From NCBI RefSeq assembly GCF_003339505.1, contig NZ_QPIW01000003.1, positions 184,471 through 248,470 of the forward strand: 64,000 nucleotides of DNA. Reading direction: 5' to 3'. This stretch comes from Runella aurantiaca (GTDB lineage Bacteria; Bacteroidota; Bacteroidia; Cytophagales; Spirosomataceae). Below, piece after piece: positions 16,599 to 57,577 of this stretch. Below the pieces are notes generated by a model. It had not been told where the DNA came from, did no database searches, and saw nothing but the letters and a program-made list of their open reading frames with translations. The translations under genes and the position numbers were made by a program. The stretch's first letter is position 1. Every line of letters begins with the position of its first letter.

Positions 16599-17981
16599 TT
16601 ACCGCGTTTTTACGTATTCATCCCAGTTGATTTCGGCCTGCGGGCGGGCCAATTGCCTGAAAATTGTACCACGGTCAATGGTTACATCTACGTTTGCGGC
16701 ATTGAGGCGATCGTAGCGACGCAAATCTACCCAACGATGTCCCCAAGGCTCGGCCCAAAGCGAATAACGGCGTTGGAACAAGATTTCGTCAATAAGGGCA
16801 TCTTTGGTCGTAGCGCCCGTGTAGTTTCCAATACCCGCAGCAGTACGAATACGGTTAATGGCCGCCACTGCTTCTGTGGTTTTATTGAGCTGGGCGTTGG
16901 CCTCAGCAGCAATCAGCACCAACTCTTCGTTACGGAAAAACTTTACCTCAGAGGTGTTGAGGGCAAAACGGTTGTCTTGGTACAAACCCGCCAGAGGTGT
17001 TCCATCTGATGTAACCGAGACAGGAGCCGTACGTCGGAAAAACTTCGCACGGACGCGTGCATCTCCCGCAATGGTATCACGTAAGACCGATGGGTGCACC
17101 ACCATCATGGTGCTTACATTGGCATTTTTGACAAAAAACAACGGGTTAAACGTATCTGGTGGCGCCCCGAAGGTATGGGCAGGGCCTGCTTCTAAACTAC
17201 CAGTTGCACTATAAAAGGATGCGGTTACTGCATCCAAAGCACCTTGCCAGTCCTGACGATACACGGCCAAGCGCGCCGCAATGGCACGATTCAGTTGACG
17301 CAGTCCAGCAATGGTTCCGAAGCCATTTCCTGTGAAACCAGACGTCAAACGTAGAGGAAAATTCCCTGTGCCAGCACCGCTCAATTCGGTATTGCCTTCG
17401 TCCAAGATGCGTTTGATTTGGGTAAACGACTCTGCAAGCGGCAAGAAAGGCCCTGGATTTTGAACGTCTTTGACATCAATTCGAATCCCATTGTCGTATT
17501 GCCCCATTGCCACAATCAGGTATTGGTACGCCATGAGGGTTTTGGCAAAGCCCGAAACCGCATTTTTCTCTTCGGTCGTAAAAGTATTGGTATTGCTAAC
17601 GGCATCAATCACTGTCTGCGCCTGACGAATGGCAAAGTAAGGTTGCTGATACGTATTCAAATATCCAAACATGTTGGCTGTTGCCTGACGCCCGTTCATG
17701 CCGAGCCAATCAGTTTGCCAACGAGGGTCAGAGGCGTTTAAGTACCACAATTCACGCCCCATTGTTCCGTACAACATTGTCACGGTAAAGAGATAATCAC
17801 GGTGACGCGATTCCAACCCAGTTACCAAGTTTTGCACTTGGGTACGAGACGCGTTTTGACTCACACTTCCCAGCGAAGGGTTGTTGGGGTCGTTGGGAGT
17901 ATCAAGGCTGAAAAAGTTACAAGAACTCATCATCAACAACAGCCCTGCAAAAACCGGAGTATATAAGTGTATTTTTTTCAT
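16599..17981 (-). CDS. susD: SusD/RagB-family nutrient-binding outer-membrane lipoprotein
   Basis: Lipoprotein signal MKKIH...LLMMSSC. Size of 460 aa, position immediately downstream of the TonB-dependent receptor, and SusD-like composition. Confidence 0.85.
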   Translation of the reverse strand: MKKIHLYTPVFAGLLLMMSSCNFFSLDTPNDPNNPSLGSVSQNASRTQVQNLVTGLESRHRDYLFTVTMLYGTMGRELWYLNASDPRWQTDWLGMNGRQATANMFGYLNTYQQPYFAIRQAQTVIDAVSNTNTFTTEEKNAVSGFAKTLMAYQYLIVAMGQYDNGIRIDVKDVQNPGPFLPLAESFTQIKRILDEGNTELSGAGTGNFPLRLTSGFTGNGFGTIAGLRQLNRAIAARLAVYRQDWQGALDAVTASFYSATGSLEAGPAHTFGAPPDTFNPLFFVKNANVSTMMVVHPSVLRDTIAGDARVRAKFFRRTAPVSVTSDGTPLAGLYQDNRFALNTSEVKFFRNEELVLIAAEANAQLNKTTEAVAAINRIRTAAGIGNYTGATTKDALIDEILFQRRYSLWAEPWGHRWVDLRRYDRLNAANVDVTIDRGTIFRQLARPQAEINWDEYVKTR

Positions 17982-17993
17982 GTCCGTAACGCA

Positions 17994-20900
17994 TTAAAAT
18001 TCAACAACTAAATGACCAAAAAAGCGACGCTGTGTAGGATAAGGAGCAATATCTACCCCCGATGCCACGGCTTGCAACCCAAAAGTGGAAGTTTCGGGAT
18101 CGTAGCCACGGTATTTGCTGAACGTCAATGGGTTTTGGCAAGAGAAACCTACGCGCACCCGTGATATTTTATTGTTGGACCATTTATTCAATGAGGTGGT
18201 AGGGACAGTGTAGTACAACGCTGCCTCGCGCAAACGAAGATAGGTGGCATCTTGTACCCAACGGTCGGCGCCGTTGTGAGGAGCTAAGCCCCGCTGACGG
18301 CCGTTAGGCACGCCGTCGCCGTTATCGTCATCGTCCCAGTCAGGAGAGGTTCCGCCGCCATCCCACAAAAACTCGGTTAGGTTGATATTATCCCCTCCTT
18401 TTTTCCAGTGCCAAAGCATGTTGAAATCAAAGTTTTTGAAGAAGTTGATTTCATTGCTCCACGACATCTGAAAATCAGGCTGGTTATCTCCCAAAATGTA
18501 CGCCCCTGTACGCACACCTTCAGCGGCAGGCGTATCATTGGCATCACGCGCTGGGCGTGTACCTACGATGGTCGTTGGCGAAAAGCCCTCTTGGTACAGG
18601 AATGTCCCCAATGTTACCCCAAAAGCCCCTAAGTTGTAGGCAGGGATCCCCAACTTGGTAAGAAGAATGTCGTTTTTCCACCACAACACCCGCGAACTCC
18701 AGCGAAACTTTTCTTTTTGGGCAATGGTTCCTCCCAACGAAAGCTCTACGCCACGGTTTTGGAGTTGGGCTAAGTTAGTAGGAATAGTACTGATACCCAC
18801 CGCAGGAGAAAGTTGCAAATTCTGAATATTACTGCGGGTTTGCTTATCGTAGTAGGTCGCTTCCAGTTGGATTCGGTTGTTGAACAATCCTAAATCTAGC
18901 CCAAACTCCAACTCACCCGCACGCTCAGGCTCAATGGCGGCATTGCCCGCCGCAGTGGTCACCACCGAGCCAAGCAATCCGCCGATATTGGCCGAGTTGA
19001 GCGGCGTAAATGTGGTTCCAAAACCTGGTACTCCAGCGGTTTGTCCATAGGCAACACGCGGCTTGATTTGTGAGAAAACAGAAGACAAGCTCGATGAGCG
19101 AATGAAGTCAAAGTTGGCAATGTTGATGGCCAAAGATGCTTTCGGGAAAGCCCAAAACTTGTCGGCATCGCCAATAAGGGTTGATTTATCCCAACGTACG
19201 CCCGCCGTAGCGATGATTTTATCATCCCAGTTGGCTTCTTGTTGAACAAACGCACCCACGTCGGTAATGGTCTGAAAACGTTGGTCAAAAATCTCTTGTA
19301 CGGTTCCTTGACGCAAGTTGGTTTGACCTCCTGCCAATCCACGCGAGCGGTTGAGCAAGCGGTCTTCGCGGAAGTTAAGCCGCACCGCACCCGCTTGCGA
19401 TGTAAGATTGACTTTCCTAATGTTCCAGTTATAAACCAATGCCGTTTGGAAGTTGGTATTCACGTTTTCGGTTTTTCCCCAAATCACATCGCCTGGGTTT
19501 CCTTGAGCGCGTTGGTATTGCAAATCTTCGGGAAGATAAACAAACGTTGTTCCTTGGGTATAGTCCAATCCTCCTTGTCCTACCAATTTCAGTAGTGATT
19601 TTTCTGACTTGTAAAGATTCGCCGTCAGGTTAAACGACTGAATAAATCGGTTGACATTGGTGTTGTTGATACCACGGTCGGTTACGGCCACGGGATTTTC
19701 GGAGAAGTAAGGGTTGTCGGGGTAGCGACCGCTTTCATCGGGGAAAAGGTTGTAATAATTGGGAACATAAGCGATGTTGTACCCAATACTCGCCCCTGAG
19801 TTATTTTGGTTTCCCGTAAAACCCCGGTCGGAGTTGGTATTGATGTAGTTTGACCCTACGGATAAGGTAATATCGTTGGTCAGTTTATGGTCGATATTGG
19901 CACGTAACGAATAGCGTTTAAAGCCCGTACGTCGAACAATGCCTTTTTCGTCGGTCAAGGCTCCCGAAATGAAAAACTTGGTTTTATCGTTCCCGCCCGA
20001 AATTCCCAAACGAGTGTTGGAAAGTGGTGCCGTGTTTCCGTAAAAATACTTTTCATAATCCCAGGTTTGGCCATTGGCCGCACGGAAGCGGTCTAACTCC
20101 GTCTGCCGACGAGCAGCGGCAAAAAATGTGTTGATTTTAGCTTCCGTCCAGTTGTCTACCCCAAATAGTCGTTGTGGAGTAGCAAATCCGTAGTCTTGGG
20201 CAAACGATACTTTTGTTTTGCCTGCACTACCGCGTTTGGTGGTGATGATGATTACCCCGGCATTGGCCCGGGTACCGTAGATAGCCGCCGCCGATGGGCC
20301 TTTGAGTACTTCTACGTTTTCGATGTCGTTGGGGTTTAAGTCTGAAATCCGGTTAGAGGCATCGTCTTGGGTTTCCGCTCCTGCGCCTGTGACCGAGGCA
20401 CGACCCGAACGATTAACCCCGTTGTTGGCATAAACTCCGTCAATAATGTATAGAGGCTGGGAAGCGCCTACCAGCGATGAAATCCCCCGCAACTGAATCG
20501 AAACCCCGCCTCCTGGTGCGCCACCGTTGGTGTTCATGTTGACCCCCGGCAGTTTTCCGTAAAATGCGTTGTCTACTGTTTGGATTTGGGTCGTTCCCAT
20601 GAGGTCTTTAGCCGAAAGGGTTCCTACCGCGTTGGCCAAGTTGGAACGTTTGATGCTCGACGCCAAACCTGTTACAACGACTTCCTGAAGGTTTGAAACG
20701 TCTTCGATGAGCGTTACATTAATGGTGCTGTTGTTGCCAACAGCCACCTCTTTCGATTGAAAACCAATGGAAGAAAAGACCAACGTCGCGTTGTTTTGAC
20801 GGAGCGTAATGGAGTACGTTCCATCTGCCCCGCTGGTGGTGCCAATTGTGGTGCCTTTCACAACGACATTTGTTCCTGGGATAGGGGAGCCATCGGCGGA

Positions 20901-21008
20901 TTTGACCGTCCCACTGACTTGGTTTTGGGCAAAGGCAATTGCGGTTAGTAACCACATCCCCGTCGCAAAGACTAGTCTTGCCATCGAAAAATAGGTAAAT
21001 TTTAACAT
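17994..21008 (-). CDS. susC: SusC/RagA-family TonB-dependent receptor
   Basis: Signal peptide, carboxypeptidase-regulatory-like N-domain (VSGTVKSADGSPIPGTNVVVKGTTIGTTSGADGTYSI), TonB-box region and plug. About 1000 aa, with a C-terminal aromatic residue (…VVEF). Confidence 0.9.
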   Translation of the reverse strand: MLKFTYFSMARLVFATGMWLLTAIAFAQNQVSGTVKSADGSPIPGTNVVVKGTTIGTTSGADGTYSITLRQNNATLVFSSIGFQSKEVAVGNNSTINVTLIEDVSNLQEVVVTGLASSIKRSNLANAVGTLSAKDLMGTTQIQTVDNAFYGKLPGVNMNTNGGAPGGGVSIQLRGISSLVGASQPLYIIDGVYANNGVNRSGRASVTGAGAETQDDASNRISDLNPNDIENVEVLKGPSAAAIYGTRANAGVIIITTKRGSAGKTKVSFAQDYGFATPQRLFGVDNWTEAKINTFFAAARRQTELDRFRAANGQTWDYEKYFYGNTAPLSNTRLGISGGNDKTKFFISGALTDEKGIVRRTGFKRYSLRANIDHKLTNDITLSVGSNYINTNSDRGFTGNQNNSGASIGYNIAYVPNYYNLFPDESGRYPDNPYFSENPVAVTDRGINNTNVNRFIQSFNLTANLYKSEKSLLKLVGQGGLDYTQGTTFVYLPEDLQYQRAQGNPGDVIWGKTENVNTNFQTALVYNWNIRKVNLTSQAGAVRLNFREDRLLNRSRGLAGGQTNLRQGTVQEIFDQRFQTITDVGAFVQQEANWDDKIIATAGVRWDKSTLIGDADKFWAFPKASLAINIANFDFIRSSSLSSVFSQIKPRVAYGQTAGVPGFGTTFTPLNSANIGGLLGSVVTTAAGNAAIEPERAGELEFGLDLGLFNNRIQLEATYYDKQTRSNIQNLQLSPAVGISTIPTNLAQLQNRGVELSLGGTIAQKEKFRWSSRVLWWKNDILLTKLGIPAYNLGAFGVTLGTFLYQEGFSPTTIVGTRPARDANDTPAAEGVRTGAYILGDNQPDFQMSWSNEINFFKNFDFNMLWHWKKGGDNINLTEFLWDGGGTSPDWDDDDNGDGVPNGRQRGLAPHNGADRWVQDATYLRLREAALYYTVPTTSLNKWSNNKISRVRVGFSCQNPLTFSKYRGYDPETSTFGLQAVASGVDIAPYPTQRRFFGHLVVEF

Positions 21009-28169: not shown

Positions 28170-28213
28170 CTAAATAAAAGAACCGTATAAGGCCATAAAA
28201 AACTTATACGGTT
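28170..28213 (-). terminator. rho-independent terminator downstream of the Pnkp gene (11-bp stem aaccgtataag / cttatacggtt)
   Basis: Perfect inverted repeat 28181-28191 / 28203-28213, with a T-rich run on the minus strand. Confidence 0.65.
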
Positions 28214-28221
28214 CAACGCTT

Positions 28222-29103
28222 TTAAAAATCCCCGTAATTCACCTGCAAACACGGCAAACCCAGCTCCAAGCGCCACAAATCCACGACTTGGTTGCGGTCG
28301 TCGAGCACAAATTGCACGAAATATTGCCCTTTTACGTGCGCTTCGTAAAGCTCTTTTTTGACAACAGCATCTTTGCGCATATCTCCCGTCGTACGCATAT
28401 AGAGCGCGTGATAAGGGATATTGTTGTATTTCAGCCAATTGAGCGTCGGCGTCCGCGCTTTCTCTTCTCGACCCGACATCAAAATAATTTTGACACCCAA
28501 AGTGTAATAATTTTTGATGATTTCGGCAATGGGTTGGTTGAGATCATCCAATTCGCACGACATGGTATCGTAAGGGCTTCGGTTTCTCAAAATAGCCAAC
28601 GTGCCGTCCAAATCACACAGGATAGCAGGCGGCAAAGTTGGGTCTTGGGGCTGATAATGCGGCCCGCGCTCATCGCCCAACACGTGGGTTTTGTACATAC
28701 GTAAAATCACGTCGCGGCCTACTTTTTTCTCCCGTACTTCATCCCGTGCTAAGCTTTCTTCCAATGAAGTGTTCATTTCCCGAACCTCTATCTGCACCTG
28801 TTCTCCCGTTTCTTTGCAGTATTTCTGCACCACCTGACGAATGCGCTCCACTGGGCGGTCTGATAAATTTGTATCATCAATGATGACGTGTTTTCCATCG
28901 CGCAGAGCTTCCACTAACATCAAATCACGGACTCGCTCTACAAACTTTTCGTTGTGTTTTGAATGTTCGCTGTTGTCGAGCATGGCGCGGAGTTCGTCTT
29001 TGTTCAGCCGTTTGTACATGCCCTTGTTCTCGTCCAACAGTTGTCGGGCGAGAGTCGATTTTCCGCTGGCGGGCAGTCCCCGCAGTAAGATTACTTTTTT
29101 CAT
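28222..29103 (-). CDS. polynucleotide 5'-kinase/3'-phosphatase, T4 Pnkp-like (N-terminal P-loop kinase + C-terminal HAD/DxDGT phosphatase)
   Basis: Walker A 'LLRGLPASGKSTLA' at the N-terminus. C-terminal 'ILCDLDGTLA ... LMSGR ... RKD ... LDDRNQVV' gives HAD motifs I-IV. Domain order matches phage T4 polynucleotide kinase. Confidence 0.8.
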   Translation of the reverse strand: MKKVILLRGLPASGKSTLARQLLDENKGMYKRLNKDELRAMLDNSEHSKHNEKFVERVRDLMLVEALRDGKHVIIDDTNLSDRPVERIRQVVQKYCKETGEQVQIEVREMNTSLEESLARDEVREKKVGRDVILRMYKTHVLGDERGPHYQPQDPTLPPAILCDLDGTLAILRNRSPYDTMSCELDDLNQPIAEIIKNYYTLGVKIILMSGREEKARTPTLNWLKYNNIPYHALYMRTTGDMRKDAVVKKELYEAHVKGQYFVQFVLDDRNQVVDLWRLELGLPCLQVNYGDF

Positions 29104-29106
29104 TTT

Positions 29107-30177
29107 TTATACATCATAATTGGCAAACGGCTTCTGAAATACGGGGCGCAGTTGCTTCCAAATCACGTCGTCATAGGGCTTTTGGTCAAACATTTTGAAC
29201 AAAACCGCTGGGTAACGACAGGTTTGAAAATACAGCGCAGTGTCTTTACGCGTTTCTAAAATTTTGAAATCAGCCTTACAGATCGCTTCAATTTCCGCAA
29301 ATTGCGCCAAAAGTTGCGCGTGGGTTTCCTTGACCCACTCATAAAATTCATCGGGTACTTTTTCCAGAATCGGCGTTAAATCCTGTCCTGCTTTCAAATA
29401 CTCCCAAATGCTGACGGTTGAAACGCCCGTCACAATTCGGTGGACGCGCTGGTATTCTTCAAACTTCACTTTCAAACGATATCCACTTTGAAAACGCACC
29501 ACAAATCCTTCTTTGTTTTCTTCCTCCAGCGTTTTCAGCAACTGTAAATCGTTCAGGCCGTCGTAGCGTTTGACGATTTCAAAACCGCCTTCTTTTAGAA
29601 ATGCATGATGTTGCGTTTCTAAAACATCAATTCCCGTTTGGTTATCAATGACCGCCAAAAGAACCAATTTGCGTTCGGCTCCGTAATCCACCACAATGCG
29701 GTTTTCGGGATAAATGATTTCGAATAAATACGTCTTGGTCGGGTCTAAATTCGGAATAACGGGGGCGTATTGGGTATGCAACATGTCCGTAGCCATCAGC
29801 GCCTGCTCGCTCGAAAACGACCCGCGCGAAGCGATAAACGGCTTATTATCATACCAATACAAAATCCCTAATGAACCGTCAAGTTTCTCAAACACTTCAA
29901 AAGGCTCGTTGGGAATGACTTGGTTTTCCATTTCGCCCAAATTGAAAAACTTCCCAAAAGGGCGTGCCACGATGTTATATTCCTCATCTAAAATCAAGCC
30001 TCTGCACGCCAGCGTCAATTCATTCCAAACGCGGTCGTATTGGGTTTTGGGGGTATAGTTGTAGATGTACAACGGTGCCGTGGGGTGCTTTTGCACCTTG
30101 ATGTAATCATCGGCAATGAGTTGTTGTAAGGCTGCGATATTCATCGTTTTAGGTAGACTTGCCAAGTTTTTCAGCAT
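29107..30177 (-). CDS. ATP-dependent RNA ligase, T4 Rnl1 family
   Basis: Nucleotidyltransferase motif I 'KLDGSLG', motif IV 'EGFVVRF' and motif V 'YRLKVK'. Rnl1-like segments 'CRGLIL', 'RPFGKFFNL' and 'SRGSFSSEQALMA' (compare T4 Rnl1 'CRGIMF', 'RPMEKFFNL', 'SKGSIKSEQALMA'). Its stop lies 3 nt before the Pnkp start. Confidence 0.8.
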   Translation of the reverse strand: MLKNLASLPKTMNIAALQQLIADDYIKVQKHPTAPLYIYNYTPKTQYDRVWNELTLACRGLILDEEYNIVARPFGKFFNLGEMENQVIPNEPFEVFEKLDGSLGILYWYDNKPFIASRGSFSSEQALMATDMLHTQYAPVIPNLDPTKTYLFEIIYPENRIVVDYGAERKLVLLAVIDNQTGIDVLETQHHAFLKEGGFEIVKRYDGLNDLQLLKTLEEENKEGFVVRFQSGYRLKVKFEEYQRVHRIVTGVSTVSIWEYLKAGQDLTPILEKVPDEFYEWVKETHAQLLAQFAEIEAICKADFKILETRKDTALYFQTCRYPAVLFKMFDQKPYDDVIWKQLRPVFQKPFANYDV

Positions 30178-30201
30178 ACCTGAGGTAAACTTGGCAAGTC
30201 T
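30155..30201 (-). promoter_or_regulatory. 14-bp perfect inverted repeat (agacttgccaagtt ... aacttggcaagtct) enclosing the annotated Rnl start codon
   Basis: Arms at 30155-30168 and 30188-30201. The ATG at 30175-30177 sits in the 19-nt loop. No T-run follows, so it is not a terminator. Confidence 0.5.
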
Positions 30202-39073: not shown

Positions 39074-41569
39074 CTAGCTAAGTGAGTAAACGGGAAGGTT
39101 TTCATGGTGAGTTTCTAACAAGGACGTAATGTCGTTGACCGTGTCTAAGTGATTTGCTAAAGGATTATAAGGCACAAACTCCCCATTTCTAAACACTGAA
39201 ATTTCCTGTGTTTCGGGGTTTATCACGGCCAAATTGACCCATTCGTTGATAAACCACTCATACGTTGCGGGATTTTTTTGAATCGTTTTCAAGACTAATT
39301 CTGGGAAGTGTTCCACAATCATCAGAAGACGCACTGGGTCGTGTACCTCAATCATTTGGCTCGGCAGTCCAGGACGCAAATCGCCGTCGATTCCGTTGGC
39401 AACGCCAAAAAGTCCCATTACATTGTGCGGCAATTTGGTTCCTGCACCGAGTTTTTGATTATCTACGCGTGAGAAAAAGTACTCCAGATTAATGCCTCCG
39501 CACACGGGCGCGGCCGCGTTGAGAATATTGAGTAGGTACTTTCCTTCGGGGTCTACTTGGTAGTCAAACGAATTTAAAAACGCTCGTCTGTCCAGAAAAA
39601 CATCTTTCGATAAGCTCCGCCGGCCAATGATACAAAGGGCGTTGGTGGCGTGGTTGAGCTCAGGCCGAGGCTCAAACAACGATACTGAGCGGGTTCTTAT
39701 CTTTTCGTGGATTTTTTGAGGGCTCAGTGTGGTATCAATGGATTCAAATCTCCGAGAGCGTTCTTTGGCGTTATAATCCAACGCTTTCTCAAAAATTGTT
39801 TCATTCTTTTTGTGTCTTTCCTGATTTTTGGGCGAGAGCGTATTTTCGTCAAAGTACACTATTTCGTCGCGGGTGGTATCGTGAAGACCTCCTATAAACT
39901 GGGTATCGGCAGGAATCACAATGCCTCGGTCGCTCAAAATAGCCCTGACTTTGGGGTGGTTGGCCATGAAAGAAATCACCCGGGAGTTGACCGAGCCAGC
40001 CCGACCCGCGCAGGCACCACAGTCGTAGGCGGCGTAGTGAGGGTTGTTTACGCTGCTCGCTCCGTGTCCAATCACGTATACAATAGGCGCAAAATTATCT
40101 ACTAAACCAATACTTTTTAGCAGGTTTTCGACACGAATGGCCATTTCGTCAATCGTGAACCCAATTTGAAGGTTGTTTTCGTGGTGATTGGCATGTTTGT
40201 TTTCGATGGTAAGCGTCGAAAACCGGTCCATGTGTTTAAAAGAAGACGCCGTAGCGGGACTCATCGAAGGCCGAAAGATATTGATAAACAGCTTCGCGGC
40301 CGACCAAAATCCCAGCGTTTGAGAAATCAGCCAACCTCCGTAAAAAGAGTGGGAGTGTTTGCTGAAATGCACATCTTTTTTGCGTCGGTGTTTGTTGCCT
40401 ATTTCTTTAATTAAGTATTTGGGCGTGACGGGAGCGGGGCAAACTTTGGTATAAAATTTCCCGTCTTCGGGTTGATAGAAGAACTCCACCCCAAAAAAAC
40501 CAGGCGTACCAAATGTCGCGCAGGCAGGGTCAAACTCTTCCAGATAGCGGCGCAGGGAGCATTCACGGTCGTCGATACAAAACATGGCCTGAAAGCTTTT
40601 GCGAGAGCTATCAACGCTCTCCTTCTTTTTGTTTTGGAGTCCCGTTAGTACTTGGTCATAATAACTCCATTCAAAAGCCTCCTGCCACAGCGAAAGCACT
40701 TCGTTCAGTTCGGTTTTTTCGACGGGGGCAAAAAGCGGTGTTGGCGCTTGAATCATGCGCTCTTTTAACGGTTGCCAATCTCCACCGCAGTGAAAGTCGA
40801 GGGCGTCGATTTCCAACAAAAGTTCAAACACAACCACATCATGGAGTGATATTTTGCGGCGGTCGAGCAATGTTTGTGGTTGGTCTTCAATGGCCGATAC
40901 CATCCCCGACCATCCCTGATGCGCGAATTGCTGATCGTAGAGGTATTGTTGATATAATTCTTTTTTGCCTACCAGAATTTTCAACAACGAGCTGATTTCG
41001 CAACTATTGTTTAAAAGCAAATCTTTGGCGCGAGAAGCCCTAAAAATGCTCGAAAAACTATTTTTTTCGAGCTCCCGCATGGAAGCAAGAAACGTTTTGT
41101 CTTTAATGGGGAAATTCCAAATCGAAATGCCTTGGTCAAGATAACTGCAAAGCACTCGGAAAAGAATCGGATGCACGAGAGAATCCAAATCAATGCGGTA
41201 ATGCTTTTTCCAGTTGGCCCGCAATGCGCCAACCCTCGGTAAGGCCGCAGGAGCGTATTTTTTGGAAATAAGGTTGTTTTGCCATTCCTTAAGGGCTTTT
41301 GTTCCTTTCTTTTCGACAATGATTTTGTCAAGCACCTCTTTTTTGATGCGCTCCGACTTATATAATTCACGAAATTCATCCAGCGAAAGCGAGACTTTGT
41401 ATCCAAACAATTCAGATGCTCTTTGTGTAGCTTCGTAGAATTTGTCCGTCTGAAATGCGTGTAGCGTATTGTGGTGGATAAAGTCTTTGAGTGGCGCTTG
41501 AGCAGGCAAGAAGTGCTTCAAATCATGGAGTACTGCGTGTTCATCGAACAATGAATCATGTGTTTTCAT
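39074..41569 (-). CDS. dabA: DabA (DUF2309) cytoplasmic subunit of the DAB inorganic-carbon pump
   Basis: 831 aa. 'DFIHHNTLHAF' and 'VIGHGASSVNNPHYAAYDCGACAG' match DUF2309 signatures with Cys/His candidate zinc ligands. Confidence 0.75.
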   Translation of the reverse strand: MKTHDSLFDEHAVLHDLKHFLPAQAPLKDFIHHNTLHAFQTDKFYEATQRASELFGYKVSLSLDEFRELYKSERIKKEVLDKIIVEKKGTKALKEWQNNLISKKYAPAALPRVGALRANWKKHYRIDLDSLVHPILFRVLCSYLDQGISIWNFPIKDKTFLASMRELEKNSFSSIFRASRAKDLLLNNSCEISSLLKILVGKKELYQQYLYDQQFAHQGWSGMVSAIEDQPQTLLDRRKISLHDVVVFELLLEIDALDFHCGGDWQPLKERMIQAPTPLFAPVEKTELNEVLSLWQEAFEWSYYDQVLTGLQNKKKESVDSSRKSFQAMFCIDDRECSLRRYLEEFDPACATFGTPGFFGVEFFYQPEDGKFYTKVCPAPVTPKYLIKEIGNKHRRKKDVHFSKHSHSFYGGWLISQTLGFWSAAKLFINIFRPSMSPATASSFKHMDRFSTLTIENKHANHHENNLQIGFTIDEMAIRVENLLKSIGLVDNFAPIVYVIGHGASSVNNPHYAAYDCGACAGRAGSVNSRVISFMANHPKVRAILSDRGIVIPADTQFIGGLHDTTRDEIVYFDENTLSPKNQERHKKNETIFEKALDYNAKERSRRFESIDTTLSPQKIHEKIRTRSVSLFEPRPELNHATNALCIIGRRSLSKDVFLDRRAFLNSFDYQVDPEGKYLLNILNAAAPVCGGINLEYFFSRVDNQKLGAGTKLPHNVMGLFGVANGIDGDLRPGLPSQMIEVHDPVRLLMIVEHFPELVLKTIQKNPATYEWFINEWVNLAVINPETQEISVFRNGEFVPYNPLANHLDTVNDITSLLETHHENLPVYSLS

Positions 41570-57456: not shown

Positions 57457-57492
57457 CACCACCAAAATCGGAAACGACGTAGGCATTCAAAT

Positions 57493-57566
57493 TCCCGAGT
57501 AGCTCAGTCGGTTAGAGCATCTGACTGTTAATCAGAGGGTCGCTGGTTCGAGCCCAGCCTCGGGAG
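57493..57566 (+). tRNA. tRNA-Asn (anticodon GTT)
   Basis: Cloverleaf: acceptor TCCCGAG/CTCGGGA, D-arm GCTC-AGTCGGTTA-GAGC, anticodon arm TCTGA-CTGTTAA-TCAGA, T-arm GCTGG-TTCGAGC-CCAGC, discriminator G. CCA is not encoded. Confidence 0.9.
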
Positions 57567-57577
57567 CCCTAAAAATC

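Follow-up and report, generated by a model that had tools for sequence, protein, structure and literature searches.

Why should a bacterial chromosome carry, side by side, relatives of the two enzymes with which phage T4 repairs tRNA? T4 polynucleotide kinase-phosphatase (Pnkp) and the RNA ligase Rnl1 are textbook phage counter-defence enzymes, and a sequence-only reading of a stretch of the Runella aurantiaca genome had left two origins open for such a pair, namely phage origin or a bacterial RNA-healing system. We analysed the pair within its window (the whole stretch of DNA under study, 64 kb). The evidence favours the second origin: with a probability of about 0.8, we interpret the pair as a chromosomal RNA heal-and-seal module of R. 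aurantiaca that is widespread in Bacteroidota.

The ligase and Pnkp genes

The two genes and the element that follows them are located as follows.

29107..30177, minus strand: ATP-dependent RNA ligase of the Rnl1 family (T4 RnlA-type); open reading frame of 356 aa with matches to PF09511, PHROG 562 and T4 Rnl1
28222..29103, minus strand: Pnkp, polynucleotide 5'-kinase and 2',3'/3'-phosphatase (Pnkp1/T4-type), 293 aa; assigned through Pfam, PHROG and solved structures
28172..28213, minus strand: terminator-like hairpin read from the sequence, with an 11-bp stem (AACCGTATAAG/CTTATACGGTT), an 11-nt loop and a T-rich tail, directly past the Pnkp stop

Both reading frames are on the minus strand and fall exactly where the sequence-only reading had placed the pair, with one probable amendment. 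The most likely true start of the ligase is Met12 (ATG at 30144), giving 345 aa, because homologues are about 339 aa long and the RefSeq protein WP_158549980.1, named 'T4 RnlA family RNA ligase', begins there. The proposed membership in the Rnl1 family, based on short peptides, was borne out. The translation contains CRGLIL, RPFGKFFNL, KLDGSLG and SRGSFSSEQALMA; Pfam RNA_lig_T4_1 (PF09511) matches at 3e-22, its 79.9 bits passing the gathering score of 28.3; PHROG 562 (T4 Rnl1) matches at 2e-71 over residues 12-351 of 356; and the top sequence match among solved structures is T4 Rnl1 (2c5u, 4e-16). The NCBIfam equivalog TIGR02308 gave a score of 80.5, below its cut-off of 242.25, and the ligase is therefore a distant member of the family rather than an orthologue of T4 RnlA. 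To our knowledge, no bacterial Rnl1-type ligase has been characterised so far.

An AlphaFold model of the ligase (pLDDT 82) is helical from 240 to 342. When this model was searched with Foldseek, the best match was T4 Rnl1 (5tt6, E 1e-18, 367 columns) followed by the LIG domains of fungal Trl1, so that T4 Rnl1 and fungal tRNA ligase rank ahead of any DNA ligase. The closest relatives of the pair are RNA ligases and polynucleotide kinases, and not the DNA ligases that the earlier reading had named as a refuting outcome.

Essential residues of T4 Rnl1 were taken from Wang et al. 2003, as cited in PMC6097658, and from general background on the enzyme. In motif I (KxDGS), K98-L-D-G-S of the ligase aligns with K99-E-D-G-S of T4, and none of the K, D, G and S varies among 76 bacterial homologues. 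The counterparts of Arg54, Lys75 and Phe77 upstream of motif I (R59, K76 and F78), of Glu159 in motif III (E153), of Glu227/Gly228 in motif IV (E223 and G224) and of Lys240/Lys242 in motif V (K236 and K238) are likewise invariant in the clade. Lys119, which is essential in T4, is replaced by Arg118 in the ligase and by Arg in all 76 homologues, with the positive charge kept. The ligase apparently is intact, retaining the catalytic residues of the T4 enzyme except for this one Lys-to-Arg change.

Pnkp is a single polypeptide in which an N-terminal P-loop kinase (AAA_33, 3e-19, residues 4-136) precedes a C-terminal HAD phosphatase of the DxDxT type (HAD_PNKP, 4e-50, residues 158-293); the T4 domain order had thus been recognised correctly. 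The translation contains CDLDGTLA and matches PHROG 505 at 2e-84. Among solved structures it aligns over the full length with Pnkp1 (4xrp_A, 9e-57) and with T4 Pnkp (1ltq_A, 5e-39), the closest being Pnkp1 from the Capnocytophaga Pnkp1-Rnl-Hen1 complex. Every essential residue of T4 Pnkp is kept: Lys15, Ser16, Asp35, Arg38 and Arg126 of the kinase correspond to K15, S16, D36, R39 and R124; Asp165, Asp167, Arg176, Ser211 and Arg213 of the phosphatase to D164, D166, R175, S210 and R212; and Asp254, Lys258, Asp277 and Asp278 to D245, K249, D268 and D269. These catalytic positions are invariant in 67 homologues except for that of Ser16 (Ser in 65, Thr in 2), and Pnkp appears to be intact. The nucleophile K98 and the DxDGT aspartates D164 and D166, the positions singled out for checking by the earlier reading, are kept in the Runella proteins and in every bacterial homologue aligned.

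The 3-nt gap noticed between the ligase stop and the Pnkp start is real (GTA TAA-AAA-ATG AAA), and by this arrangement the two genes appear translationally coupled, which argues that both enzymes work together. The hairpin past Pnkp is the probable end of the operon. A pattern scan for sigma70 promoters and terminators gave nothing useful. It missed this hairpin because the loop of 11 nt exceeds the scanner's limit of 8 nt, and its promoter part was uninformative because Bacteroidetes promoters differ.

A predicted operon with a tRNA-like RNA and a WYL regulator

Ligase and Pnkp would be the last cistrons of a single transcription unit, in the order palindrome promoter, YrlA-like RNA, SPFH/Band-7 protein, DUF4143 ATPase, ligase, Pnkp and hairpin. 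This larger unit, a putative RNA-repair operon that is headed by WYL, includes a tRNA-like RNA and has the pair as its tail, had been missed by the sequence-only reading. Its remaining elements are listed below.

30156..30200, unstranded: perfect inverted repeat of 12 nt (GACTTGCCAAGT) in the gap from the ATPase stop to Met12, the probable ligase start
30210..31364, minus strand: AAA_14 and DUF4143 ATPase (Pfam 2.5e-45 and 7e-29; PADLOC candidate PDC-S01, 9e-97)
31451..32611, minus strand: SPFH/Band-7 (stomatin-like) protein (Pfam Band_7 3.9e-33; stomatin structures 2e-15)
32852..32963, minus strand: predicted YrlA-like (Y RNA-like) tRNA mimic with T-arm, closed acceptor-like hairpin and D-arm (Rfam RF02553 match and covariation)
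33062..33067, minus strand: TTTG-containing box (CATTTG) in a conserved column block, 10 nt downstream of the palindrome
33078..33098, unstranded: operator-like palindrome GTGCGCA-N7-TGCGTAG in the divergent promoter region (family consensus CTRCGCA-N7-TGCGYAG)
33155..34186, plus strand: divergent HTH-WYL-WCX transcription regulator, YafY/PafBC-like (Pfam WYL 2.6e-10, WCX 1.8e-14; PADLOC WYL 1.7e-24)

The predicted RNA has a permuted tRNA-like core, in which a T stem-loop lies 5' of the closed acceptor-like stem and a D stem-loop follows. Using cmscan, RF02553 (YrlA) matched it with 42.1 bits (E 7e-8) over the full model, short of the gathering score of 69; a Rfam scan of the entire window at gathering threshold found tRNA-Asn alone. 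When 13 syntenic copies are aligned, compensatory changes occur at 13 of the 15 pairs. A covariance model built from syntenic copies gave 25 matches scoring 50 bits or more, all on the ligase strand, across the window and 13 related loci; eight of these loci (window included) had supplied the seed sequences and hence match by construction. ARAGORN called no true tRNA at any of the 13 sites, out of these 14, that it scanned (the window and 12 loci, the two sites of L024 lying outside the scan). Covariance matches of 41 bits or less were excluded from the count of Y-like RNAs. For the window and the bacterial loci, five such matches fall on genuine tandem tRNAs called by ARAGORN or Rfam, and those in viral loci were assumed to be likewise tandem tRNAs. 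A strict regular expression caught 2 true sites of the permuted element, and a looser pattern, the Rfam scan and the covariance model were needed for its detection. Minimum free energy folds of the region were no better than those of shuffled sequences (z = -0.55 and -0.63). The flanks of the window RNA are without the GGGTTAC...GTTACCC stem of the Ro-linked copies, and this RNA may correspond to the class of 'Band-7-associated tRNA-like RNA'.

The palindrome emerged from an alignment of five SPFH-type loci. The window copy aligns with perfect copies in two loci (L009, L075) and with 1-mismatch copies in two others (L066, L072); it departs from the strict consensus at 2 positions and, taken alone, is not significant. 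Across the bacterial loci, CTRCGCA-N7-TGCGYAG occurs at 103 sites in 57 of the 81 loci, as compared to roughly 10 in shuffles (about 10-fold enrichment), and there are none in the 0.96 Mb of viral loci. The sites lie immediately upstream of LIG, Hen1, c7, SPFH and TROVE, and the palindrome is also present in 32 of the 36 loci that carry a WYL gene. Shared 10-mers in WYL-proximal intergenic regions were AT-rich words only. Going by the published promoter consensus of Bacteroidetes, the CATTTG box is a candidate -7 element that would drive the RNA-SPFH-ligase-Pnkp unit. The 12-nt inverted repeat upstream of the ligase gave 2 matches, versus 0.2 expected by chance.

Of the 60 loci whose upstream sequence extends for at least 4 kb, 32 have an orthologue of the regulator gene ahead of the ligase and in opposite orientation. 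WYL transcription factors have been proposed as regulators of RNA-repair pathways (PMC9503650). The Runella protein would most likely bind the palindrome and switch the unit on or off upon a nucleic-acid damage signal.

Other genes recur around the ligase. RlaP, TROVE/Ro60, SPFH and Hen1 with a PNKP_ligase-type Rnl are recurrent neighbours across the related loci. The SPFH cluster (c18) is a recurrent island component, preceding the ligase in 8 loci, one of which is the window. Ro/TROVE precedes the ligase in the close relatives L001, L024, L039 and L058; a tblastn search found no Ro/TROVE gene in the 64-kb window. In Flavobacterium islands a TatD DNase recurs, and a full Hen1-Rnl-Pnkp1 cassette is located beside the Rnl1-type ligase. 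The DUF4143 ATPase, present in just 2-3 of the 81 related loci and differently positioned in L010, is a sporadic insert of the island.

These neighbours bear on an unlikely alternative, in which the module would belong to a DNA-damage regulon, with DNA or mixed DNA/RNA ends as the substrates that it heals and seals and with a WYL protein that senses single-stranded DNA as in PafBC/DriD. The sole solved relative of the regulator, weakly matched, is PafBC (7p5x). WYL/PafBC-type regulators are best known for the DNA-damage response, so the trigger could be DNA rather than RNA damage. T4 Pnkp is active on DNA ends as well, as stated in the T4 annotation, and the recurring TatD DNase of the Flavobacterium islands fits this view. 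However, the ligase is Rnl1-type, its fold closer to RNA-sealing enzymes than to DNA ligases as described above, and the island partners are RNA-specific, including the tRNA-like RNA, Ro/TROVE, the RNA 3'-nucleotidyltransferase RlaP (PMC12776372) and the RNA 2'-O-methyltransferase Hen1.

Distribution of the pair and the question of phage origin

Relatives occur in at least 559 GTDB species genomes. Among the 80 best loci, almost all with a Bacteroidota label, 67 have a Pnkp gene that follows the ligase in the same orientation, and in 33 the two genes are direct neighbours. Judged informally from the tabulated loci, identity drops with taxon label, from 89% in Runella through 62-71% in Emticicia/Arcicella to 56-61% in Flavobacterium, a gradient that counts against a prophage source.

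A prophage source for the pair, which would then be the chromosomal remainder of a counter-defence module as in T4, seems very improbable to us. The family is very common in phages, with 2227 and 2635 matching phage records. Arthrobacter phage Bauer has the ligase-then-Pnkp order of the window, IMG/VR contigs reach 57-58% identity, and in a tree rooted on T4 the bacterial clade emerges within viral diversity. Yet in the phylogeny, a check that the sequence-only reading had suggested, 77 bacterial ligases form a single clade by neighbour joining, and none of the 80 nearest viral ligases falls inside it. The best homologues from deposited phages are only 37-41% identical. Nor did the flanks yield the prophage remnants envisaged there, since the 21 flanking ORFs scanned against Pfam have cellular functions or no family, with no integrase, structural, capsid, terminase or lysis gene among them. 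The flanks hold ordinary chromosomal genes by Pfam (sulfatase, sialate esterase, SusC/D, DHDPS, AraC, DabA), the GC content of the pair resembles theirs, and the nearest tRNA is 27 kb off. The regulator, operator and RNA common to the cellular loci are absent from the 80 viral loci, which contain none of the WYL, SPFH and TROVE genes and have Pnkp within 6 kb of the ligase in only 7 cases. The phage half of the original proposal is thus disfavoured, and its other half, a bacterial RNA-healing system, stands.

There is equally little chance that Pnkp serves as the Pnkp1 subunit of a Pnkp1-Rnl-Hen1 complex with Rnl and Hen1 encoded elsewhere and the adjacent Rnl1-type ligase independent: the solved structure that it matches best is indeed the Pnkp1 found there (9e-57), Capnocytophaga has hen1 unlinked from its pnkp1-rnl genes (PMC4411300), and Hen1, Rnl and Pnkp1 accompany the Rnl1-type ligase in Flavobacterium islands, but the Pnkp that stands beside Hen1-Rnl in Flavobacterium is a separate paralogue, sharing only 39-41% identity with the window Pnkp, as opposed to 50-91% for Pnkps adjoining the Rnl1-type ligase, both paralogues occur in L059, and the 3-nt junction speaks for joint work with the Rnl1-type ligase. 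The window ligase, a PF09511 protein, has no match to the Rnl chain of 4XRP. Membership in the Pnkp1-Rnl-Hen1 system was rejected, as tblastn found neither Hen1 nor a PNKP_ligase-type (PF16542) Rnl in the 64-kb window.

Proposed mechanism and relation to known systems

As a cellular heal-and-seal module, the pair would act in three steps. The HAD domain of Pnkp would remove a cyclic or 3' phosphate via an acyl-phosphate intermediate on Asp164; its P-loop kinase (Lys15, Asp36, Arg39, Arg124) would phosphorylate the 5'-OH; and the ligase, adenylylated on Lys98, would pass AMP to the 5'-phosphate and seal the nick, producing an ordinary 3'-5' junction. More tentatively, the locus may represent a minimal, Bacteroidota-wide, WYL-controlled RNA-damage regulon with CTRCGCA-N7-TGCGYAG as its operator. 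In this speculative scheme the WYL protein would sense broken-RNA ends (e.g. 2',3'-cyclic-phosphate tRNA halves) in an RtcR-like way, and would induce the tRNA mimic and the Band-7 protein, which would serve a tRNA-specific repair pair of Rnl1 and Pnkp1 as cofactor or scaffold. In a still more unusual variant, the ligase could act on the permuted tRNA-like RNA itself, with end joining and acceptor-loop processing resulting in a functional or decoy tRNA.

The ligase family is already named in RefSeq, and the pair is widespread in Bacteroidota; the most useful new details are the operator motif and the regulon. They extend known families and a predicted system type and do not overturn current understanding. 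The locus offers a compact and tractable cellular version of the T4 pair, with one regulator, an operator, a tRNA-like RNA, a Band-7 protein and two enzymes, in a cultivable species of Runella. Because the palindrome is conserved, the regulon can be computed across whole genomes, and it provides a direct handle on the signal sensed by the WYL regulator; a bacterial Rnl1-type ligase could serve as a reagent.

The biochemistry of T4 Pnkp/Rnl1 and of Pnkp1 has been described (PMC4411300, PMC3592404). T4 tRNA repair by Pnkp (PseT) and Rnl1 (gp63/RnlA) uses the same two enzyme families and Pnkp domain order; the ligase fold match is full-length, including the helical C-terminal domain, and in T4 also the ligase gene is upstream of pseT on the same strand. 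However, the Runella ligase is only about 21-23% identical to the T4 protein and has Arg in place of Lys119, and Pnkp identity is roughly 35%, as extrapolated from T4-like Escherichia phages at 36.7-37.9%. The T4 genes are separated by 1.4 kb and four genes, whereas those of Runella appear translationally coupled. The Runella pair is cellular, shares a predicted WYL-regulated operon with genes for a tRNA-like RNA and a Band-7 protein, and presumably serves to protect RNA of the cell itself instead of counteracting a host defence.

Within Bacteroidota, T4-like Pnkp1 was already known and has been crystallised (PMC4411300), a point missed by the sequence-only reading, as was the RefSeq name of the ligase family. 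The Capnocytophaga Pnkp1-Rnl-Hen1 system belongs to the same phylum and its Pnkp is close to ours, but its ligase is a PF16542 Rnl instead of a PF09511 protein. The Runella window is without Hen1, and 2'-O-methyl 'immunisation' of the junction is therefore not expected. In the same genus, the HD-Pnk/LIG/Tpt1/MTase-HIT cluster of Runella slithyformis also has an end-healing kinase-phosphatase ORF directly after a ligase ORF, there overlapping; however, its enzyme families are not related to ours, the healing enzyme joining an HD phosphoesterase to a C-terminal kinase and the ligase being of another kind that did not seal standard nicks (PMC6097658). That cluster is a separate system.

The RtcR-controlled rsr-yrlBA-rtcBA operon of Salmonella and E. 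coli resembles the Runella unit in having a ligand-sensing regulator beside an operon of a Y RNA-like mimic and end-processing and ligase genes (PMC7790460; bioRxiv 10.1101/312249). There the regulator is a sigma54 CARF-type enhancer-binding protein rather than an HTH-WYL-WCX protein, the enzymes are the GTP-dependent 3'-phosphate ligase RtcB and the cyclase RtcA rather than an ATP-dependent 5'-PO4/3'-OH Rnl1 and Pnkp, and the place of Ro is taken in our window by SPFH/Band-7. Ro/YrlA, and Band-7 with a tRNA-like RNA, were placed beside RNA ligases by Burroughs & Aravind 2016, as cited in bioRxiv 10.1101/312249, and WYL factors were proposed as sensors for these systems (NAR 44:8525, as cited in PMC7824862, PMC9503650 and bioRxiv 10.1101/312249). 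The neighbourhoods so reported share with Runella a Band-7 gene by a tRNA-like RNA and an RNA ligase, with RlaP, Ro-vWA and PNK-HAD as partners, and differ, according to the citing papers, in that Band-7 and the tRNA-like RNA lie mainly beside RtcB. To the extent that these sources describe them, the RNA-repair islands earlier predicted by comparative genomics are matched by the Runella unit.

The ligase and kinase-phosphatase genes

Reading the ORFs of the window recovered both co-directional genes that the sequence-only reading had placed here, and all of the peptides it had cited were found in the translations.

Features of the locus in the window (position, strand, description)
33155..34186, plus strand, regulator, currently annotated 'WYL domain-containing protein'
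33078..33098, palindrome GTGCGCA-N7-TGCGTAG
32852..32963, minus strand, YrlA-like tRNA-mimic RNA, inside the 543 nt that separate WYL from SPFH
31451..32611, minus strand, SPFH gene
30210..31364, minus strand, AAA_14/DUF4143 ATPase, matching the PADLOC candidate PDC-S01 (9e-97)
30156..30167 and 30189..30200, 12-nt perfect inverted repeat spanning the start codon of the longer ligase ORF, between the stop of the DUF4143 ATPase and the Met12 start of the ligase
29107..30177, minus strand, ligase, 356 aa
28222..29103, minus strand, Pnkp, 293 aa
28172..28213, minus strand, terminator-like hairpin just past the Pnkp stop (11-bp stem, 11-nt loop, T-rich tail)

The stop of the ligase and the start of Pnkp are indeed 3 nt apart, since the junction reads ...GTA TAA AAA ATG AAA... 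The ligase probably starts at Met12 (ATG 30144), to judge from its homologues, which are about 339 aa long, and from the RefSeq form, whose 345 aa begin at this methionine. RefSeq names it 'T4 RnlA family RNA ligase' (WP_158549980.1) and GenBank calls it hypothetical, while Pnkp is annotated as 'AAA family ATPase / phosphatase domain-containing protein' and, in UniProt, as 'Polynucleotide kinase'. The predicted hairpin after Pnkp, overlooked by a consensus terminator scanner because of the scanner's limit on loop length, probably ends the transcription unit ahead of the sulfatase gene.

The proposed assignment of the ligase to the Rnl1 type was borne out by its matches to Pfam RNA_lig_T4_1 (3e-22) and, over residues 12-351, to PHROG 562, the T4 Rnl1 family (2e-71). 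Its top solved relative by sequence is T4 Rnl1 (2c5u, 4e-16), and its AlphaFold model (mean pLDDT 82) has T4 Rnl1 as top structural match (5tt6, E 1e-18, 367 aligned columns), followed by the LIG domains of fungal tRNA ligases and then by archaeal Rnl3, with DNA ligases far lower. When 76 bacterial homologues and T4 Rnl1 were aligned with the ligase in MAFFT, T4 residues R54, K75, F77, K99, D101, G102, E159, E227, G228, K240 and K242 proved conserved and invariant; the position of T4 K119 is an invariant Arg in the bacterial ligases.

Pnkp is likewise T4-type, with matches to Pfam HAD_PNKP (4e-50) and AAA_33 and a full-length match to 1ltq (5e-39) when compared with T4 Pnkp. It also matches, full length, the Pnkp1 of the Capnocytophaga gingivalis Pnkp1-Rnl-Hen1 complex (4xrp_A, 9e-57); a crystal structure exists for a T4-like Pnkp from Bacteroidota. 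By alignment, all of the kinase residues K15, S16, D35, R38 and R126 and phosphatase residues D165, D167, R176, S211, R213, D254, K258, D277 and D278 (T4 numbering) are conserved. Given these family and structure matches and conserved residues, the best homologues are neither DNA ligases nor unrelated kinases, and the key lysine and the DxDGT aspartates are in place. Both enzymes fall in known families of studied chemistry, and the pair is, as judged from sequence, a T4-type heal-and-seal duo.

A probable cellular RNA-repair island

Phage origin and a bacterial RNA-healing system had both been offered for the pair; the flanks, the ligase tree and the genes of the island argue for a cellular module and against phage origin. 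A Pfam scan of 21 flanking ORFs turned up no phage gene. The flanks encode a sulfatase, a sialate O-acetylesterase, a GMC oxidoreductase, a SusC/SusD pair, DHDPS, an AraC regulator, an Exo_endo_phos protein and DabA/DabB, and the GC content of the pair shows nothing unusual relative to its surroundings. The SusC/SusD pair (16599..21008, minus strand), the DabA/DabB-type inorganic-carbon transporter pair (37197..41569, minus strand) and a tRNA-Asn (57492..57569) are unconnected to the repair locus.

Phages do encode relatives. Among deposited phage genomes the top matches, in Streptomyces and Arthrobacter phages, have 37-41% identity, and in Arthrobacter phage Bauer the ligase precedes Pnkp as in the window; in IMG/VR contigs ligase identity reaches 57-58%. 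T4 has rnlA and pseT on one strand and in the order seen in the window, rnlA first, but 1.4 kb apart. Only 7 of the 80 IMG/VR contigs bearing the nearest viral ligases have a Pnkp within 6 kb of the ligase, and WYL, SPFH and TROVE genes occur in none of the 80. Bacterial relatives are encoded in at least 559 stretches of GTDB species genomes, and the best 80 of these are nearly all labelled Bacteroidota (Runella, Emticicia, Arcicella, Saprospiraceae, Chitinophagaceae, Flavobacterium, Taibaiella and others), with two MAGs labelled otherwise. Across these best 80 of at least 559, ligase identity appears to drop with taxonomic distance, an impression drawn from the taxon labels. In a T4-rooted neighbour-joining tree without support values, built from the top 80 hits per collection, 77 bacterial ligases form one clade with no viral member inside. 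We take the locus to be a cellular module of long standing, from a family that phages share.

When the ORFs of the 80 bacterial loci were clustered and the cluster representatives scanned against Pfam, a variable yet recognisable RNA-repair island emerged. In 67 of the 80, Pnkp follows the ligase on the same strand, directly adjacent in 33 and 0.25-4 kb off in 34, and the genes in between are mostly RlaP RNA nucleotidyltransferases (PF10127, about 30 loci). The Flavobacterium insert consists of a complete Hen1 (PF22032), a PNKP_ligase-type Rnl (PF16542) and a second Pnkp1 (39-41% identical), then TatD. With an Rnl1-type ligase standing beside this complete cassette, two ligase systems share one regulon.

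Flavobacterium loci with an Rnl1-type ligase and a complete Hen1/Rnl/Pnkp1 cassette
L050, L051, L063, L065, L068, L071, L073, L074, L077, L078

These ten islands also hold, besides TatD, a conserved 746-aa protein and SUKH-family genes. Upstream of the ligase, the Pfam scan found TROVE/Ro60-vWA, SPFH/Band-7, the 746-aa protein (a weak Prok-RING_4 match), SUKH and further nucleotidyltransferases across the loci. Of the 60 loci with at least 4 kb of upstream sequence, 32 have an orthologue of the window's WYL regulator there, encoded on the opposite strand. The DUF4143 ATPase gene recurs in only 2-3 related loci and may be mobile or independently acquired; in L010 a 72% identical copy is placed after the ligase instead. 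The window holds the island's minimal form, with WYL on the plus strand, then SPFH, ATPase, ligase and Pnkp on the minus strand, and none of Hen1, the PF16542 ligase, RlaP, TROVE and TatD is encoded in its 64 kb.

Some islands carry genuine tRNA arrays near the ligase or SPFH gene: L029 410..642 (Gln-Lys-Phe), L061 226..1789 (eight tRNAs), L073 15936..16212 and L079 11810..12042. By analogy with phage genomes, these may be spare tRNAs.

A tRNA-mimic RNA and a shared palindrome

The RNA in the WYL-SPFH gap matches Rfam YrlA at 32862..32953 on the minus strand with 42.1 bits (E 7e-8 for that search), which is below the gathering score of 69. The matched portion is a permuted tRNA core of T-arm, closed acceptor-like hairpin and D-arm. 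The element also occurs at syntenic sites in relatives, at times as arrays.

Tandem YrlA-like arrays of 3-6 genes, with TROVE/Ro on one side and the ligase on the other
L039 6057..7772, six copies
L001 1932..2428, three hits, two of them strong
L041 6171..6762

An alignment of 13 copies showed compensatory changes in 13 of 15 consensus pairs. Searched against the window and the 80 loci, the covariance model built from it gave 47 hits (E <= 0.01), all of them on the ligase strand. Twenty-five of the 47 score 50 bits or more and come from the window and 13 loci; in 8 of these 14 strong sources, the window included, the hits match by construction because those sources gave the seed sequences. ARAGORN found no genuine tRNA at the strong-hit sites of 13 sources scanned (the window and 12 loci, leaving out the two sites of L024). 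Weaker hits precede the 746-aa gene in Flavobacterium loci, and the lowest-scoring ones, which overlap true tandem tRNAs, were not counted as Y-like RNAs. In the viral loci, all hits of the model were at most 41 bits; the low hits in L084-L091, L099 and L157, a few kb from viral ligases, look like tandem tRNA arrays.

Ro-linked copies have a GGGTTAC...GTTACCC terminal stem, which is missing from SPFH-linked copies, that of the window included. A leader of about 90 nt (32964..33058, minus strand) separates the tRNA-like core from the predicted promoter and contains blocks conserved in L009, L066 and L075 (GAACCTGAYGTTGGTYTC..., CGATATGCT). The RNA may extend beyond the Rfam match.

An alignment of the intergenic regions next to the WYL gene, taken from the five SPFH-type loci, revealed the palindrome CTACGCA-N7-TGCGTAG and, about 10-13 nt downstream of it, a conserved TTTG-containing box. 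With up to 2 mismatches there are 103 sites in 57 of the 81 bacterial sources (the 80 loci and the window), against 7-13 in block shuffles. The consensus CTRCGCA-N7-TGCGYAG is enriched about 10-fold in bacterial loci, and none was found across 0.96 Mb of viral loci. All but 5 of the 103 sites have the 7-nt spacer (98 sites in 53 loci). The motif is present in 32 of the 36 loci bearing a WYL gene.

Palindromes (for example L003 1359..1379 and L050 9037..9057) sit immediately 5' of transcription units: 35 sites are within 150 nt of a ligase start and 11 within 150 nt of a Hen1 start, and the next gene is the 746-aa gene at 24 sites, SPFH at 12 and TROVE at 4, usually with the RNA in between. Ligase genes are preceded, in order, by an A/T-rich stretch, the palindrome, a spacer of about 11 nt, TAnTTTG and some 20-30 nt up to the ATG. 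Going by the published consensus, TAnTTTG may be the Bacteroidetes -7 element, in which case the palindrome would occupy the -33 region. This position would fit a repressor, or a PafBC-style activator replacing -35 recognition; PafBC, a weak match, is the sole solved relative of the WYL protein. The single window site is not significant alone, but it is syntenic and alignable. The palindrome probably serves the WYL regulator as operator. Near the ligase of the window there is no copy, the DUF4143 gene occupying the corresponding position, and expression of this ligase and of Pnkp therefore probably relies on the promoter further upstream. The transcript is predicted to begin near 33055.

Proposed mechanism and relation to known systems

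Homology and residue conservation suggest that Pnkp would convert 2',3'-cyclic-PO4/5'-OH ends to 3'-OH/5'-PO4, and that the ligase would then seal them through ligase-AMP (K98) and AppRNA into a clean junction. Such heal-and-seal chemistry is established for T4 Pnkp/Rnl1 and for Pnkp1 (PMC3592404, PMC4411300, PMC6097658). The natural substrates would be RNAs of translation, tRNAs among them, that ribotoxins have cut. We propose that the unit is a single transcript, and that the WYL protein responds to a ligand generated by damage and has the palindrome as its binding site. For WYL transcription factors in control of RNA repair, Aravind-lab papers have proposed cyclic-phosphate RNA ends as ligands (PMC9503650). 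A DNA-damage trigger or a DNA substrate may apply instead. The tRNA-like RNA and the Band-7 protein could assist or target the enzymes.

In the accessible literature, biochemical work on any bacterial Rnl1-type ligase appears to be lacking, and both the Rnl1-Pnkp1 pairing as core of a WYL-headed regulon and the operator sequence appear to be undescribed. Already known are the RefSeq name of the ligase family and the neighbourhood type, predicted by comparative genomics; the locus is a good experimental entry point, not a surprise. As cited by Wang et al. (bioRxiv 10.1101/312249), Burroughs & Aravind 2016 describe Rsr/YrlA as occasionally adjoining non-RtcB ligases, YrlA as occasionally adjoining Band-7, and RtcB as accompanied in some bacteria by a Band-7 protein and a tRNA-like RNA. 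Going by that citation, the window is an instance of the type of system that Burroughs & Aravind 2016 predicted.
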